64,000 bases of DNA from Ilumatobacteraceae bacterium (GTDB lineage Bacteria; Actinomycetota; Acidimicrobiia; Acidimicrobiales; Ilumatobacteraceae), in assembly GCA_963741755.1 (NCBI GenBank), contig CAVUJG010000021.1:15653-79652 (forward strand), given 5' to 3'. Made by a program: the position numbers and the translations under genes. Shown in pieces: positions 8,942 to 31,988 of the stretch (position 1 is the first letter of the stretch; each line of letters starts with the position of its first letter). Below the pieces are notes generated by a model. That model made no database searches and was not told where the DNA came from. It was given only the letters and a program-made list of their open reading frames with translations.

Positions 8942-9625
8942 ATGGCAACAACGAAGAACTCCGCCAAGAAGAAGTCGGCAGCGAAATCCACGGCGAAGAA
9001 GACGGCGGCCACGCGGTCCACCGCCCGGAAGACGACGCCATCCTCGACACCGAGCGACGCGATCGCCGTGTTGAAAGCCGACCACGGCCGAGTCGCCGAC
9101 CTGTTCGACAAGTTCGAGGGACTCGGCGACCGAGCCCACAAGACGCGTGAGGCGACGGTGGGAAAGATCATCGAAGAACTGTCCGTCCACGCAGGCATCG
9201 AGGAAGAGGTCTTCTACCCCGCGGTACGTGAACGGTTCGCCGACAAGGGCGACAGCCAAGTACTGGAAGCCCTCGAAGAACACCATGTCGTCAAGCTGCT
9301 CCTTGTCGAACTCGAATCGATGCCGTCCACCAGCGAGCGGTACACGGCGAAGGTCACGGTGCTGAGGGAGATCGTCGATCACCACGTCGACGAAGAGGAG
9401 GACGAGCTCTTCAAGAAGGTTCGACAGGAATTCACACGTTCCGAACTGGTGCAGCTGGGTGCGGACCTCACCGCTGCGCGCGACTCGGCACCCACCCGCC
9501 CCCACCCCGAAGCGCCCGACACGCCTCCCGGCAATGTCGTTGCGAACGTGGTCGTCGCACCGCTCGATGCCGCCACGGAGGTCACCAAGCGGGCCGCAGG
9601 GACAATTCGCGACCTGATCGACTGA
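8942..9625 (+). CDS. hemerythrin (HHE cation-binding) domain protein with Lys/Ala/Thr-rich basic N-terminal tail
   Basis: The first ~40 aa are AKKKSAAKSTAKKTAATRSTARKTT. Hemerythrin-type H/E motifs follow (LKADHGRV, HAGIEEEVFYP, EEHHVVK, IVDHHVDEEEDELF). Confidence 0.85.
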   Translation: MATTKNSAKKKSAAKSTAKKTAATRSTARKTTPSSTPSDAIAVLKADHGRVADLFDKFEGLGDRAHKTREATVGKIIEELSVHAGIEEEVFYPAVRERFADKGDSQVLEALEEHHVVKLLLVELESMPSTSERYTAKVTVLREIVDHHVDEEEDELFKKVRQEFTRSELVQLGADLTAARDSAPTRPHPEAPDTPPGNVVANVVVAPLDAATEVTKRAAGTIRDLID

Positions 9626-9639
9626 GTGCGCGAGCGGGG

Positions 9640-10195
9640 TCAGCCTGACGAGCGCACCATCACACCGACGGCGCGGATCGCCACCGTGAACGCAGCGAGC
9701 GTCACGAACGCCAGGAACGTCAGCAGCGGGCTGCCCGGTGCTTGCCGATCGACCATCACGACGACGATCAGCCACATCGAACATGTCGCCACCAGCGACG
9801 TATCCCCCGCGACGCAGCCAGCGCCACACGAGGACCCGATCGACAACGGCGGAGCTCGGCGTCACCGCCATCAGGGCGATCATCGTGTGGAACACGAACA
9901 ACGACGAGGCCACCGCAACCACCCACGGGTCGGTCGCATCGTCGGTGCCGGCCAGCCACTGCCACACGACCATCGCTTCGACGAACAGTGCGGCGTGGGA
10001 GTCGGGGTGGAACGCAGCTGCCGACGCGAGACCGACGATCAACAGGACCACGAATTGCGAGGCACCCGCGCCGGCGGCGGAGGCTGCGGCGGAGGCACCA
10101 CCTGCGGCCACCACTGCGAGCGTTCCGAACAGCCAGCGCTGCGAGGACACCATGGCGAGCCGGTCGACCCCCTGCTGGAGTTCTCCGGAACTCAT
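9640..10195 (-). CDS. polytopic membrane protein, last gene of the MoxR operon, apparent single-nt frameshift
   Basis: ATG 10195 overlaps the DUF58 stop (ATGA). Hydrophobic helices run in one frame to ~9808, then continue in the frame of track ORF 9640..9846 (WLIVVVMV...FLAFVTLAAFTVAI) after a C5/G5 run at 9804-9808. Confidence 0.45.
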
Positions 10196-27155: not shown

Positions 27156-30100
27156 ATGCGGATCCCGAGCAGTACTCTGCGCTCACGTGCGCTCGCACGG
27201 CGTGAGGCGGGGCGTGGCGACACATGGTTGTGGATGACCACAGCGGTGTTGTGTCTCGGCATGGTCCTGCCACTGGCGGCTGCGTCCGAGTCGACACCGG
27301 TCAGCGCTGCCGGTGAGTCGTCCTACTCCTCGATTCCGATGCAGTCGTGGCGACTCAACGGCGTCGGACGATCGATCCTGAAGGTCGGCACCACGATCTA
27401 TGTCGGCGGTTCGTTCACCGAAGCGATCAGCCCCGACGGCACGCAGCGCGTCAGTCGACGCAACCTTGCTGCCTTCGATCGCGCGCACTGGGGCGCTCAT
27501 TTCATCGTTCCGCGCCGACGCCGACAACGCCATCTACAACATCGAGATCAACGCCAACACGCTCTACGTCGGTGGGGTGTTCACGTCGATCGGCGGGGTC
27601 GGCCGGGCCCGACTGGCAGCGATCGACGCCACGAGCGGCGCGGTGCGCTCCGGCTTCTCCGCCGACACCAACGGCAACGTCTACGACCTGTCGCTGGCCG
27701 GCGGGAAGCTCTACGTCGGCGGCTCGTTCACGACCATCGGCGGGCAGCCGCGCACGTGTGCGGCAGCGGTATCGCCCACTTCCGGGGCGGTCGACCCGAA
27801 CTTCCGCCCCAACGTCGACGGCCTGGTGAATGCGATCGCCACGACTCCCGATGGAGCGACAACATTCATCGGTGGATCGTTCGGCATGGTGAACGGACGG
27901 GGCGACACCGATGTCAGCACCCTTGACGCCACGACTGGAGCGACAGTGGGACCCGACATCGCGAGCGCCGTCGGCGACGCCTTGCACCTCCTGGTCTCCG
28001 ACGACGGCTCCTCGCTGATTGCGGGTCATGGCACGAGTGGTAATCGAACCGCCGTCTACGACACCACGTCCGGTCAGCGGTTGTGGCGACAAACCGTCGA
28101 TGGTGACACACAGGGCGCGGCGTTGGTCGGTAACCAGGTGTTCGCCGGGTTCCACGACGGTTCGAAGGGCGAGGGCGCCACCAGAGTCGCCCTCTACGAC
28201 CGATCGACCGGAGCCGAGGACGCAGCATTCCGACCGAGCTTCGATCGTTTCATGGGGGCTTGGGCCGTCGATGGCGACTCCGACGCCCTGGTGATCGCCG
28301 GCAACTTCTCGACGATTTCGGGCGTTCGGGTCGAGGGCTTCGCCATCTTCCCCAGGTCTGCCCCGACCAGCTTCGCGGCGAGCGTCTGGGGCTACGAGCC
28401 CTGGCGCTACCTCGACACCGGCGCCGACCCCGGGGCGGCGTGGCGTCAGAACGGCTTCAACGACTCGGCGTGGAAGAGCGGCATCGGTGAGTTCGGCTAC
28501 GGCGACGGCGACGAACGGACGCGCATCTCCTACGTCGGGTCGGCCTCGAACAAGAACGTCACGTCCTGGTTCCGTCGGGCGTTCGACGCAACGAGTTCAC
28601 CGACCTCGGCGGGCATCTACATGCGCGTCGACGACGGTGCTGTCGTCTACGTCAACGGTGTCGAGGTGGCCAGGGACAACATGCCGTCGGGCGCCGTCGC
28701 GCCGGCGACATTGGCGTTCGTACGCGACGGGTACGGCGAGGACGACGTCAGATACTTCCCCATCGACCCCACGCTGATCACCCCAGGACGCAACACGATC
28801 GGCGTCGAAGTCCACCAGACCGATCCTGCGTCGGATGATCTGACGTTCTTTGCCACCGTGGTCGCATACGGCGCCGAATCGCCAACGCCCCCGACCACGA
28901 CGACGACGACCACCACGACGACCACGACAACGGTTCCGGGCACCACGGCACCGACGACCACCGTTGTCGCGCCGCCATCGGGTCGGATCGATGTCGCATC
29001 GGATGCCGTCTGGTCCTACCTCGACGACGGCAGCGATCAGGCAAACAGCTGGACCTCTGTGGCCTTCAACGACTCGGCATGGAAGACGGGCGTCGGAGAG
29101 TTCGGATACGGCGACGGCGACGAACGCACGGTCGTGAGCTACGGCCCGTCCGCCAACCCGAAGTACACGACCACGTACTTCCGCCACCGGTTCACCGCGT
29201 CCGGCGTCCCCGACGACCTCACGTTGCGACTTCGAGTCGACGACGGCGCTGTTGCCTACCTCAATGGCGTGGAGGTGGCCCGATTCAACCTCCCGAGTGG
29301 TCCCGTGAGCGTCTCGACACGGGCCCCTGCCGCGATCTCCGGACCCGATGAGCGGCTCGACCGCCCGTTCACCGTCGACCCGTCGCTGATCCGAGTCGGC
29401 GCCAACGTGCTGAGCGTCGAGGTCCACCAGAACACGCTGGGCTCGTCCGACCTGTCGTTCCTCGCCAGCCTCTTCGGCAGCGGTTCCGTCGCAGCGACGA
29501 CGGCCGCGACCACCACCTCACCGACGACCATCGTTGCGCCAACCACGACCGCTGGTCCCACCACAGCAGCAACGACCACAGTGGCACCTACCACGGCCGC
29601 GCCAACGACATCGGCGACCACCACGACCACCATCGCCGCTCCGCCACCGCCCCCAGCAGGATTGGCCGCATCGATCGCACCGGACGCCGTCTGGTCGTAC
29701 CTTGATGACGGCAGCGATCAAGGGTCCGCCTGGAACTCCGTCCAATTCGACGACACCACCTGGATGACCGGTGTTGGCGAATTCGGCTACGGCGATGGAG
29801 ATGAACGCACCGTCATCAGCTTCGGCCCGGTGACCAGTCGGAAGTACCCGACGACGTACTTCCGCCATCGATTCACGGCGACGGGAACACCGACCGAGCT
29901 GACGCTCACCCTGCGCATCGACGACGGCGCAATCGTGCACATCAACGGCGTCGAAGCCCACCGCTTCAACATGCCGGACAGCGGCGTGACCCATGAAACT
30001 CGCGCCCTCGACGCGATCTGGGGTGCCGCCGAGCGCGTCGATCGTGTGATCACGCTCGATCCCACGCTGGTTCGTGCGGGTAAGAACGTCATCACCGTCG

Positions 30101-30183
30101 AGGTGCACCAGGACACCTACGGGTCGTCCGTCGCACCGTTGCTCGCCTCGTGCGACCGGGCGCACCTGACCAACTTGCCCTGA
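27156..30183 (+). CDS. large secreted protein: beta-propeller (delta-60/DUF5122-like YVGGxFTxIGG repeats) plus three ~160-aa repeated modules joined by Thr/Pro/Ala linkers; one frameshift near the 5' end
   Basis: The signal-like N-terminus is in ORF 27156..27926 and the rest in ORF 27400..30183. The join ...RRNLAAFDRA / TGALISSFRADADNAIYNI is at ~27481-27490. Modules each contain W.YLD.G...W....F.DS.W..G.GEFGYGDGDERT...YFR..F...VDDGA..Y.NGVE...N.P. Confidence 0.75.
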
Positions 30184-30201: not shown

Positions 30202-30738
30202 ATGGCAACGCTCGTGCTCACCGTGATCGGCGACGACCGCGCAGGGCTTGTCGACGCACTCGCCGGCCCGATTGCCCGTCACGGCGGCAACTGGGACCGC
30301 AGTCACATGGCTCGGCTCGCCGGCAAGTTCGCCGGCATCGTCGTGGTGTCCGTCCCCGACGAGCACACCGACGACCTCACTGCCGAACTCGACACGCTGA
30401 CTGCGCAGGGCGTTCTCGACGTCACCGTGGCCATCGCTGCGAACGATGGACCGCCAGACCACGACGAATTCCTCCAGCTCCACCTGATCGGTCAAGACCG
30501 ACCGGGCATCATCCGCGAGGTCGCGGGCGCCCTCGCGCAACGCAACGTGAGTATCGAAGAGCTCGAGACGTCTGCGTCGTCGGCTCCGATGTCCGGTGAG
30601 CTGCTCTTCGAGGCGACGGCAACATTGCGGATGCCCGCGGCTGCCGACCCCGCAGATCTCCGTGCCGCTCTGGAGGCCATCGCCAACGAGTTGATGGTCG
30701 ACCTCGACGTGACCGAACAACGCAACGCAAGGGGGTGA
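30202..30738 (+). CDS. tandem ACT-domain protein (GcvR-like)
   Basis: There are two ACT-like halves: VLTVIGDDRAGLVDALAGPI and LHLIGQDRPGIIREVAGALA. Confidence 0.75.
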   Translation: MATLVLTVIGDDRAGLVDALAGPIARHGGNWDRSHMARLAGKFAGIVVVSVPDEHTDDLTAELDTLTAQGVLDVTVAIAANDGPPDHDEFLQLHLIGQDRPGIIREVAGALAQRNVSIEELETSASSAPMSGELLFEATATLRMPAAADPADLRAALEAIANELMVDLDVTEQRNARG

Positions 30739-30740
30739 CG

Positions 30741-31802
30741 ATGAGCGAGCCTGACGAGCCCGGAAACGCGCGCGACCGGATCCGGCTGACCCAGTTCAGC
30801 CACGGCGCCGGTTGAGGCTGCAAGCTCGCTCCCGGCGAGCTGGCGCACGTCGTGCGCCATCTGAACTCTGCCCATCCCGATCAGTTGCTCGTCGGTCCGG
30901 AGACCGGCGACGATGCCGCCGTCTGGCGCCTCGACGACGAACGGGCCCTCGTGTCGACCGCCGACTTCATCACGCCGGTCGTCGATGACGCGCGCACGTG
31001 GGGACGCGTTGCCGCAGCGAACAGCGTGTCGGACATCTATGCGATGGGCGGGCGGCCGCTGTTCGCGCTCAATCTCGTCGGATGGAACACCGACAAGCTG
31101 CCGACCTCACTGCTCGGCGAGGTGCTCGCCGGCGGGCAGGACATCGCCGACGAGGCCGGTTTCGTGATTGCCGGCGGACACACGATCGACGACCCCGAAC
31201 CGAAGTACGGCATGGCCGTCACCGGCGAGGCGCACCCCGACCGACTCCTCACCAACGCCGGGTTGCGCTCCGGTCAGGACATCGTGCTCACCAAGGCGCT
31301 CGGCGTCGGCGTCTTGACCACAGCGATCAAGAGCGGTCGGGCAACCTCGGCTCAGTCCGACGCAGTGGTCGCCTCGATGGTTCGACTGAATGACGTTGCG
31401 GCCCGTCTCGCCTTGGCCGCTGGGGTCACCGGCTGTACCGACGTGACCGGCTTCGGGCTGCTCGGCCACCTCGGCCGCATGGCACTCGAGTCCGGCGTCT
31501 CCGTCGACATCGAGTTCACGACAGTGCCGTTCCTGCCGGGCGCCGTCGAACTGGCCGCCGACGGCGTGATGCCCGGCGGCAGCACACGGAACCTGGCCTG
31601 GGCGCTGGAGTTCGTCGACGTCGGAGACCTCGACGAGGTCCGACAGCTCCTGCTCGCCGACGCCCAGACCTCCGGCGGTCTCGTGTTCGGCGTCGATCCC
31701 ACGGAAACCGCAGGCATCCTCGCCGAGCTCGCGGCCACCGGACACCGGGCGGCCCACATCGGTACCGTCCGCTCAGGCGCCCCGGGCATCACCCTTCATT
31801 GA
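30741..31802 (+). CDS. selD: selenide, water dikinase SelD with in-frame TGA (Sec) at codon 25
   Basis: ATG 30741 follows AAGGGGG. Translation gives RLTQFSHGAG-TGA-GCKLAPGEL, the SelD N-terminal loop with TGA (30813-30815) at the Cys/Sec position. The rest (ORF 30852..31802) is typical SelD/AIR-synthase fold. Confidence 0.88.
30823..30858 (+). other. candidate bacterial SECIS hairpins downstream of the selD UGA
   Basis: Hairpin 1 pairs AGCUCGC (30823-30829) with GCGAGCU (30835-30841), loop UCCCG. Hairpin 2 pairs GGCGCAC (30842-30848) with GUGCGCC (30852-30858), loop GUC. Confidence 0.5.
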
Positions 31803-31988
31803 CCACCAGGTCGCTCAGGGGCAGCGCCAGGTGGTGACCGTGTTCTCGAGCTGCTCGGTGTCGGCGTCATGCCAGCAGACCTCATGTTCGACCTGAACGC
31901 GGTGGAATGGTCCACGAAGGATCGGTCATCGACACCAGATGTACGTCGAGCGGTGCAGAGGATTGAGCGACGAGGCAGACTCTCCGCC

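Follow-up and report, generated by a model that had tools for sequence, protein, structure and literature searches.

Predicted selenocysteine decoding of selD in an Ilumatobacteraceae genome, with tandem conserved hairpins downstream of the in-frame UGA

The 64-kb stretch of DNA analyzed here (the 'window', in whose numbering all coordinates are given) comes from an Ilumatobacteraceae bacterium and is part of contig CAVUJG010000021.1 (positions 15,653 to 79,652; assembly GCA_963741755.1). The window very probably encodes a full-length selenide, water dikinase (SelD) in which the catalytic residue is selenocysteine (Sec), specified by the in-frame UGA at 30813-30815, with the second of two downstream hairpins (hairpin 2) as the predicted SelB-binding element. 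In the proposed mechanism, a complex of SelB, GTP and Sec-tRNA(Sec) would be tethered to the mRNA at the UGA through the apical GUN loop of hairpin 2, and delivery of Sec by this tethered complex would prevent termination by release factor. The first hairpin (hairpin 1), which is located between the UGA and hairpin 2, would stay folded at the mRNA entrance while the UGA occupies the A site. It may act as a structural spacer or as a pause element that slows the ribosome at the UGA, and by folding away 19 nt it would keep hairpin 2 close to the ribosome, at a working distance.

The selD gene and its catalytic codon

Full-length selD is located at 30741-31802 on the + strand and comprises 353 codons, including one UGA predicted to be read as Sec. 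Reading from the ATG at 30741-30743 yields 24 sense codons, the TGA at 30813-30815 (codon 25, + strand), 328 further sense codons and a stop at 31800-31802, and the translated frame past the TGA is intact with no frameshift. The translation reads MSEPDEPGNARDRIRLTQFSHGAG up to the in-frame TGA and continues after it as GCKLAPGELAHVV... A Shine-Dalgarno-like AAGGGGG (30729-30735, + strand) is positioned 5 nt 5' of the ATG and overlaps the end of an upstream gene that encodes a protein with two ACT domains.

With the stop replaced, the protein scores 384.2 bits against NCBIfam TIGR00476 (cut-off 125), and the alignment begins at residue 15, upstream of the stop. The score against NF002098 is 373.9 bits (cut-off 299), and both NCBIfam alignments begin at residues 12-15. 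Pfam searches recover the AIRS (PF00586, 1.4e-25) and AIRS_C (PF02769, 1.9e-16) domains. A phmmer search against the PDB aligns residues 12-342 to residues 4-333 of Escherichia coli SelD (3U0O). In this alignment codon 25 corresponds to the catalytic Cys17 and K28 to Lys20, such that SHGAG-U-GCK of the window matches SHGAG-C17-GCK20 of the E. coli enzyme. By its family profile, its N-terminal glycine-rich loop and its two AIRS domains the protein is clearly a SelD, and its predicted activity is the ATP-dependent conversion of selenide to selenophosphate.

A preliminary description of this DNA had proposed that selD begins at ATG 30741, preceded by AAGGGGG and 2 nt past the stop of the ACT-domain gene, and that its TGA occupies the catalytic Cys17 position. 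All of these coordinates match the sequence, and the alignment to 3U0O places codon 25 at Cys17. TGA is also the usual stop in the window, where it ends 42 of the 52 open reading frames (ORFs) picked by codon-position GC, so a reassigned genetic code is not the explanation for its presence within selD.

The same codon can be followed through related genes. A scan of one genome per GTDB species provides 80 related loci, which together with the window form the compared set. The closest matches, at up to 88% identity, come from Ilumatobacteraceae and other Acidimicrobiales metagenome-assembled genomes. The catalytic codon is TGA in 63 of the 81 sequences and TGC or TGT in the remaining 18. Three further relatives that were added later also carry TGA, for a total of 66 TGA-type sequences. 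The alignment to Sec- and Cys-type SelD for which the preliminary description had called therefore finds the same codon as TGA in 66 genes and as TGC/TGT in 18. TGA-type selD genes are found in Acidimicrobiia, other Actinomycetota, Gemmatimonadota and Anaeromyxobacter.

The codons that precede the TGA are under protein-level purifying selection. From codon -10 to codon -1, amino acids are kept in 65-66 of the 66 homologs while 4-6 synonymous codons are used; R-10, L-9, T-8, S-5, H-4, G-3, A-2 and G-1 are each retained at this level, with third-base entropies of up to 1.8 bits. Fixed amino acids combined with varied synonymous codons indicate that the region 5' of the TGA is translated, in frame with the rest of SelD.

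Tandem hairpins downstream of the UGA

Nucleotides of the RNA element are counted from the U of the UGA (nt 1). Hairpin 1 (30823-30841, nt 11-29, + strand) has an 8-bp stem whose last pair is U-G, a CCC loop and a folding energy of -11.5 kcal/mol; with the terminal U-G opened, it becomes a 7-bp stem with the loop UCCCG. The hairpin begins 7 nt after the UGA and its loop 14-15 nt after it. Hairpin 2 (30842-30858, nt 30-46, + strand), the predicted SelB-binding bacterial selenocysteine insertion sequence (bSECIS), has a perfect 7-bp stem, a GUC loop at 30849-30851 and a folding energy of -11.4 kcal/mol. It begins 26 nt after the UGA and its loop lies 33 nt after it. Unbiased minimum free energy (MFE) folds of the region from -45 to +60 give these two hairpins only. 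By itself the fold of the window sequence stands out only moderately (z = -2.41, matched by 2 of 200 shuffles), and the case for the element therefore rests on comparison with relatives.

One additional structure was considered and rejected. Searching 30700-30950 against Rfam at permissive thresholds returns nhaA-II as the best match, at 17.5 bits (threshold 70.4; E = 1.7), which is attributed to chance. This weak alignment suggested a third hairpin at 30784-30801 (6 bp, GGCUGA...UCAGCC, within the codons for RLTQFS). Of its six pairs, two form in just 30-37 of the 66 sequences and none shows covariation, and this hairpin is likewise judged a chance occurrence.

For the comparison with relatives, alignment A1 covers 52 nt from the UGA in 63 TGA-type sequences and is gap-free and in codon register. 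The two-hairpin structure leaves 93.8% of its cells paired, compared with 29-42% after a shift of the 3' partners by 1-3 columns. Changes on both sides of a pair are found in 79 cells, compared with 22 +/- 3.4 in shuffled alignments, and none of 500 shuffles reaches 79. Compensatory changes are present in 9 of the 15 pairs (5 of 8 in hairpin 1 and 4 of 7 in hairpin 2), and many of them couple a synonymous third base to the first base of another codon. Pair 33-43, for example, joins the third base of Ala+10 to the first base of codon +14 and occurs as GC (44 sequences), CG (7) and UA (5), while pair 12-28 joins the third base of Lys+3 to the first base of Leu+9 and occurs as GC in 40 sequences (AAG/CUG) and as AU in 9 (AAA/UUG). 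Third-base entropy is about zero at stem codons such as Leu+4 (CTC, 56 of 57), Gly+7 (GGC, 37 of 39), His+11 (CAC, 36 of 36) and Val+13 (GTG, 43 of 43), and is 1.6-1.8 bits in both loops and 1.3-1.9 bits in flanking codons.

These patterns can be checked against the Cys-type genes, a natural control. Per-position pairing in hairpin 1 holds in 46-63 of the 63 Sec-type sequences versus 4-18 of the 18 Cys-type sequences, and the corresponding figures for hairpin 2 are 54-63 of 63 versus 4-17 of 18. The mean MFE of nt 4-50 is -22.3 kcal/mol in Sec-type genes versus -13.5 kcal/mol in Cys-type genes. Both helices are thus under RNA-level selection in UGA-type genes only, and Cys-type homologs lack both. 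The core motif of hairpin 2 occurs 27 times in the 1.47 Mb of compared sequence, every time in selD; as a marker for further selenoproteins, it has no occurrence outside selD in that sequence.

A separate feature of the TGA-type genes is found in the segment directly after the UGA (window 30816-30821, nt 4-9), which lies outside both helices. Its synonymous sites are near-fixed (Gly GGC in 32 of 34, Cys TGC in 65 of 65), which could reflect either a 3'-context effect on the UGA or the third-position GC bias of the genomes.

These results bear out the structural part of the preliminary description. Its two hairpins both fold where it had placed them, with hairpin 1 as either the 8-bp/CCC or the 7-bp/UCCCG form, and its SECIS-like structure after the UGA is conserved, with compensatory changes, only in TGA-type genes. 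The further statement that both hairpins lie within the distance reported for SECIS elements holds for hairpin 2 (33 nt) but not for hairpin 1, which at 14-15 nt falls just outside the range of 16-37 nt.

This range belongs to the bSECIS consensus of the bSECISearch model (PMC13188914, Fig. 2A), which specifies an apical loop of 3-9 nt on a stem of 4-16 bp, a G at one or both of the first two positions of the loop (mostly G[G|U]), a UGA-to-apical-loop distance of 16-37 nt and an MFE of -7.5 kcal/mol or lower. Hairpin 2 of the window agrees with the consensus in all four respects (3-nt loop on 7 bp, G37-U38, 33 nt and -11.4 kcal/mol). Among the 66 TGA-type sequences, a G is present in the first two loop bases of hairpin 2 in 65, the spacing is 32-36 nt in all 66 and the MFE limit is passed in 57; G37 and U38 are invariant in the alignment. 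Hairpin 1 conforms in loop and stem (CCC, 8 bp) but departs from the consensus in two of the four respects. Its loop reads CCN; just 4 of the 66 sequences have a G at either of the first two positions, and the third base varies freely (1.83 bits). Its distance from UGA to loop is 15 nt in 50 of the 66 and at most 15 nt in 60. Provided that the gene is decoded with Sec, SelB binding is therefore assigned to hairpin 2, which on the basis of consensus fit is its probable site.

The alternative in which the SelB-binding element is hairpin 1 or a composite of both hairpins, with hairpin 2 as an accessory or both required, seems unlikely but is the best surviving of the competing explanations. The conservation and covariation of hairpin 1, with both sides changed in five of its eight pairs, are as good as those of hairpin 2, and it is likewise missing from Cys-type genes. 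The E. coli fdhF minimal SECIS is a 17-nt upper hairpin at nt 15-31 in which SelB contacts G23 and U24 in the loop (PMC8659212), and hairpin 1 at nt 11-29 is closer to this position. Some bacterial SECIS elements are also known to lie outside the consensus (PMC9312934; PMC13188914). Against this alternative, the first two loop bases of hairpin 1 lack a G in 62 of the 66 sequences, whereas hairpin 2 keeps an invariant GU; 60 of the 66 place the loop of hairpin 1 less than 16 nt from the UGA. In addition, the SelD genes of Clostridiales have the same tandem layout, and there stem 2 alone fits the bSECIS model (Mariotti et al., 2015). Hairpin 2 also shares with the fdhF element its length of 17 nt and a GU at the start of a small apical loop, which corresponds to G23/U24 (PMC8659212). 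The hairpin 2 sequence of many relatives can be written as GCAGGUC(C/U)UGC. This string presumably resembles the apex of fdhF.

With hairpin 2 as the preferred SelB-binding element, hairpin 1 still has to be accounted for. Its selection and its restriction to TGA-type genes indicate that it is functional, and it is best read as a conserved accessory helix outside the SelB-binding consensus. A helix that starts 7 nt past a UGA in the A site should stay folded just outside the ribosomal mRNA entrance.

Selenocysteine machinery and competing explanations

Components of the Sec pathway are encoded in the family Ilumatobacteraceae. The contig of one Ilumatobacteraceae metagenome-assembled genome (L008) carries selD(TGA), selA and selB consecutively on one strand, and its SelD is 75% identical to that of the window. 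The SelB of L008 has more than 100 close homologs, several of which are named Ilumatobacter or Ilumatobacteraceae SelB by NCBI. Other related assemblies contain separate selA-selB loci with no selD nearby, which match the split arrangement implied by the window, and we infer that the genome of the window carries selA, selB and selC elsewhere.

The TGA-type selD genes of Acidimicrobiia lie apart from selA-selB, with L008 as the exception. No tRNA-Sec is seen near a Sec-type selD in the loci examined. It directly adjoins selD in six loci, all of which are Cys-type (L043, 731-5093; L047, 2851-2946; and L060, L064, L072 and L080, approximately 9760-9940). Five of these six have selA and selB alongside, and L047 keeps only the end of selB at its contig edge. 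Clustering of Sec-pathway genes and the Sec/Cys state of SelD thus appear to be anticorrelated in this sample. Among the selA genes of related assemblies, the one in L083 (8719-9983) is split over three frames and several of its neighbors are fragmented, while selA is intact in L081, L082 and L087-L089. The splitting in L083 likely results from assembly indel errors, and a decaying selA is also possible.

Several observations weigh against Sec decoding through hairpin 2. The 64-kb window contains no tRNA and no selA, selB or tRNA-Sec, and a scan of 48 of its ORFs finds none of selA, selB, selU/ybbB, yqeB/C or fdhA. A link between selD and selB within one assembly (SelD P0117 and SelB P0226, both from ERZ25039514) was withdrawn as genome-level evidence. 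The related assembly ERZ25039603 has three distinct SelB proteins on contigs L087, L088 and L089 with the same selA-selB-NfeD-ArsA synteny, which indicates that such ERZ accessions cover several co-occurring Ilumatobacteraceae genomes and that the selD-selB link holds at the level of the sample only. Rfam release 15 at gathering thresholds gives no match anywhere in the window; bacterial SECIS elements are poorly represented in Rfam. G37-U38 double as positions 1 and 2 of a conserved Val codon, and part of their invariance may therefore reflect the protein; the residue at this codon is V, L, A or I in Cys-type homologs, and the codon is GUN in every TGA-type gene. Finally, hairpin 2 differs from the E. 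coli fdhF SECIS in starting 26 nt past the UGA rather than 11, in lacking the bulged U17 and in placing its GU loop 14 nt further from the UGA. The interval before hairpin 2 is filled by a separate 19-nt hairpin, whereas in fdhF the lower helix runs on into the upper one. Hairpin 2 is accordingly predicted to function in the manner of an fdhF-type SECIS, although it falls outside that type.

If these observations were taken to mean that the UGA is read through without Sec, a near-cognate tRNA would insert an amino acid such as Cys, Trp or Arg, aided by the hairpins, as proposed for hymenopteran SPS1-UGA. No Sec machinery would then be needed, in keeping with its absence from the 64 kb, and in eukaryotic SPS genes read-through without Sec can be promoted by stem-loops adjacent to the UGA (PMC4561486). 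This explanation is nevertheless very unlikely. Hairpin 2 agrees with the bSECIS model, which is SelB-dependent; the family possesses selA and selB, which in L008 directly follow the TGA-type selD; and selenophosphate synthesis is expected to be lost with any catalytic residue but Sec or Cys (PMC4561486). Furthermore, in a report cited in a recent preprint (10.64898/2026.04.03.716425), the selenouridine trait is described as absent from Actinobacteria, which would leave SelD with no known role if the Sec pathway were missing.

Sec decoding of the full-length gene also has to be set against the gene as it stands in databases. The ORF list for the window starts SelD only at the GTG at 30852-30854 (+ strand), located within the 3' arm of hairpin 2, and the corresponding database protein (P0001) has 316 amino acids, is 100% identical and covers 90% of the full protein. 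The 120 best database proteins are all 300-323 amino acids long and cover only 85-90% of full-length SelD, and the gene calls in relatives begin 36 nt past the TGA. That automated annotation would truncate the gene, as had been anticipated, is therefore borne out by all 120. Taken at face value, these calls would make the functional product a 316-amino acid protein from GTG 30852, with the upstream 72 nt as a leader or a separate small ORF, since all automated gene calls in the databases begin there or at an equivalent position. Such a product is even less credible than Sec-independent read-through, because it would lack the entire glycine-rich loop that bears Sec/Cys17 and Lys20, and because the codons 5' of the UGA show protein-level purifying selection across four phyla. 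GTG 30852 is also part of the hairpin 2 stem, and of the two starts only ATG 30741 is preceded by a Shine-Dalgarno sequence. The practical value of the full-length reading is mainly for annotation. This gene and its 120 closest relatives are short by 36-37 codons in databases and have lost the catalytic loop, with the consequence that pipelines inferring selenium use in Acidimicrobiia from protein calls misread them.

The least plausible explanation, with a negligible probability, is that the TGA is a sequencing or assembly error or that selD is a pseudogene: some related long-read assemblies do have apparent frameshifts, as in the selA of L083, but the same TGA occurs in 66 independent assemblies from different studies and phyla, the rest of the selD ORF is intact with no frameshift, and the conserved structure that follows the codon is specific to TGA-type genes.

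The genes surrounding selD provide context only. The gene for the protein with two ACT domains (Pfam ACT_6 and ACT) occupies 30202-30738 on the + strand and ends with TGA at 30736-30738; since this stop lies 2 nt before the selD ATG, the two genes may be co-transcribed or translationally coupled. The ACT gene was considered as a conserved functional partner of selD and rejected, as it adjoins selD only in the nearest relatives (L001-L004 and L084-L086), which points to local synteny rather than a general partnership. Other candidates for TGA-split genes in the window were also rejected, because the same-frame neighbors are separate genes: the DUF2867 domain, for example, is fully encoded by the time its stop is reached, and separate start codons open the ACT and PepF genes. 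Directly 5' of the ACT gene is a 927-amino acid ORF (27400-30183, + strand) whose second-position GC is high for the genome and which has sub-threshold matches only, to a PQQ_2 beta-propeller-like stretch and a mucin-like low-complexity stretch. The equivalent position in L085 is occupied by a 752-amino acid gene with no Pfam match.

On the 3' side, two relatives with SelD proteins 87-91% identical carry a four-gene cassette between selD and the next conserved gene (L085, 4040-6054; L086, 3969-5966). Its genes encode a glyoxalase-fold protein, an ArsR-type helix-turn-helix regulator, an ArsC-like low-molecular-weight phosphatase and an MIP channel, and the cassette looks like an arsenic resistance unit. 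It has no counterpart in the window, where selD is followed after 31803-31868 directly by an M3 oligoendopeptidase gene (ATG 31869). Elsewhere in the window, an ORF at 8942-9625 (+ strand) scores 104.8 bits against the PA2171 ribosome-binding persister family NF053874, below the cut-off of 190.

Comparison with known systems

The use of Sec in bacterial SelD is well documented. Sec-containing SelD is credited to Guimaraes et al. (1996), cited in 10.64898/2026.04.03.716425 as its first identification, and has since been surveyed by Zhang et al. (2006; PMC1794560), Mariotti et al. (2015; PMC4561486) and Peng et al. (2016; PMC5029168). Sec is encoded by 19% of prokaryotic SelD genes, always at this position and with the bSECIS inside the coding sequence (PMC4561486). 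No bacterial selenoproteins are more widespread than FdhA and SelD (PMC5029168), and a 2006 list of selenoproteins already included SelD for organisms that were at that time assigned to Actinobacteria (PMC1794560). The gene of the window shares with these cases the enzyme family, the UGA at the Cys17 equivalent, a bSECIS within the coding sequence just 3' of it and Cys-type orthologs in related lineages. It differs in nothing of kind; the lineage is Ilumatobacteraceae (Acidimicrobiales), and selD lies apart from selA-selB and tRNA-Sec.

The closest precedent is Actinomarina, also of the class Acidimicrobiia, in which the Sec form of SelD has been termed a known polymorphism and in which standard gene callers and Rfam SECIS models fail (bioRxiv 10.64898/2026.04.03.716425). 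The class, the Sec/Cys polymorphism and the failure of gene callers and Rfam models are the same in both. Actinomarina belongs to a different order, however, and its SelD was predicted by deep-Sep with no SECIS structure, whereas the structure described here is defined by covariation. The Sec-type SelD of the window is therefore an ordinary case of a well-known phenomenon, since Sec-SelD has already been reported in Acidimicrobiia, and the result leaves the current understanding of Sec decoding unchanged. With it, Ilumatobacteraceae, which are common in soil and freshwater, join the lineages in which selenophosphate synthetase is itself dependent on selenium.

Among eukaryotic elements, the selenocysteine redefinition element (SRE) of SPS2 and SEPN1 is a stable stem-loop a few nucleotides after the UGA that is distinct from the SECIS (PMC4561486). 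Hairpin 1 is similarly placed, and the likeness is positional only. It is conceivable, although improbable, that hairpin 1 is the bacterial counterpart of the SRE, separate from the SelB-binding hairpin and acting to pause the ribosome or to disfavor release factor 2. Under the SRE reading, hairpin 1 might also allow a trickle of Sec-independent read-through. Sec-type SelD needs Sec and Sec synthesis needs SelD, which makes a self-dependent loop, and such a trickle, if real, could restart the loop after selenium starvation. If the SRE reading were correct, it would also offer direct support for the proposal by Mariotti et al. that SREs of eukaryotes are derived from elements of the bacterial SECIS.

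The nearest structural precedent for the two hairpins is the bSECIS of Clostridiales SelD, in which stem 2 is downstream of stem 1 rather than nested and has an apex of 3-4 nt (Mariotti et al., 2015, Supplementary Material S6, Fig. SM6.1A). The two elements, likened by description only, have in common the tandem layout, a very small stem 2 apex and a stem 2 that alone fits the consensus. They differ in phyla, and the SECIS models of Mariotti et al. cover only Clostridiales, Campylobacter, Deltaproteobacteria and Pasteurellales (Supplementary S6), with none for Actinomycetota or Gemmatimonadota. The model for Deltaproteobacteria has a nested layout, unlike the Anaeromyxobacter loci compared here, which are tandem. 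The addition made here is a modest one: a covariation-backed tandem-hairpin SECIS model that is common to the TGA-type selD genes of Actinomycetota, Gemmatimonadota and Anaeromyxobacter and that could be used to train bacterial SECIS predictors.

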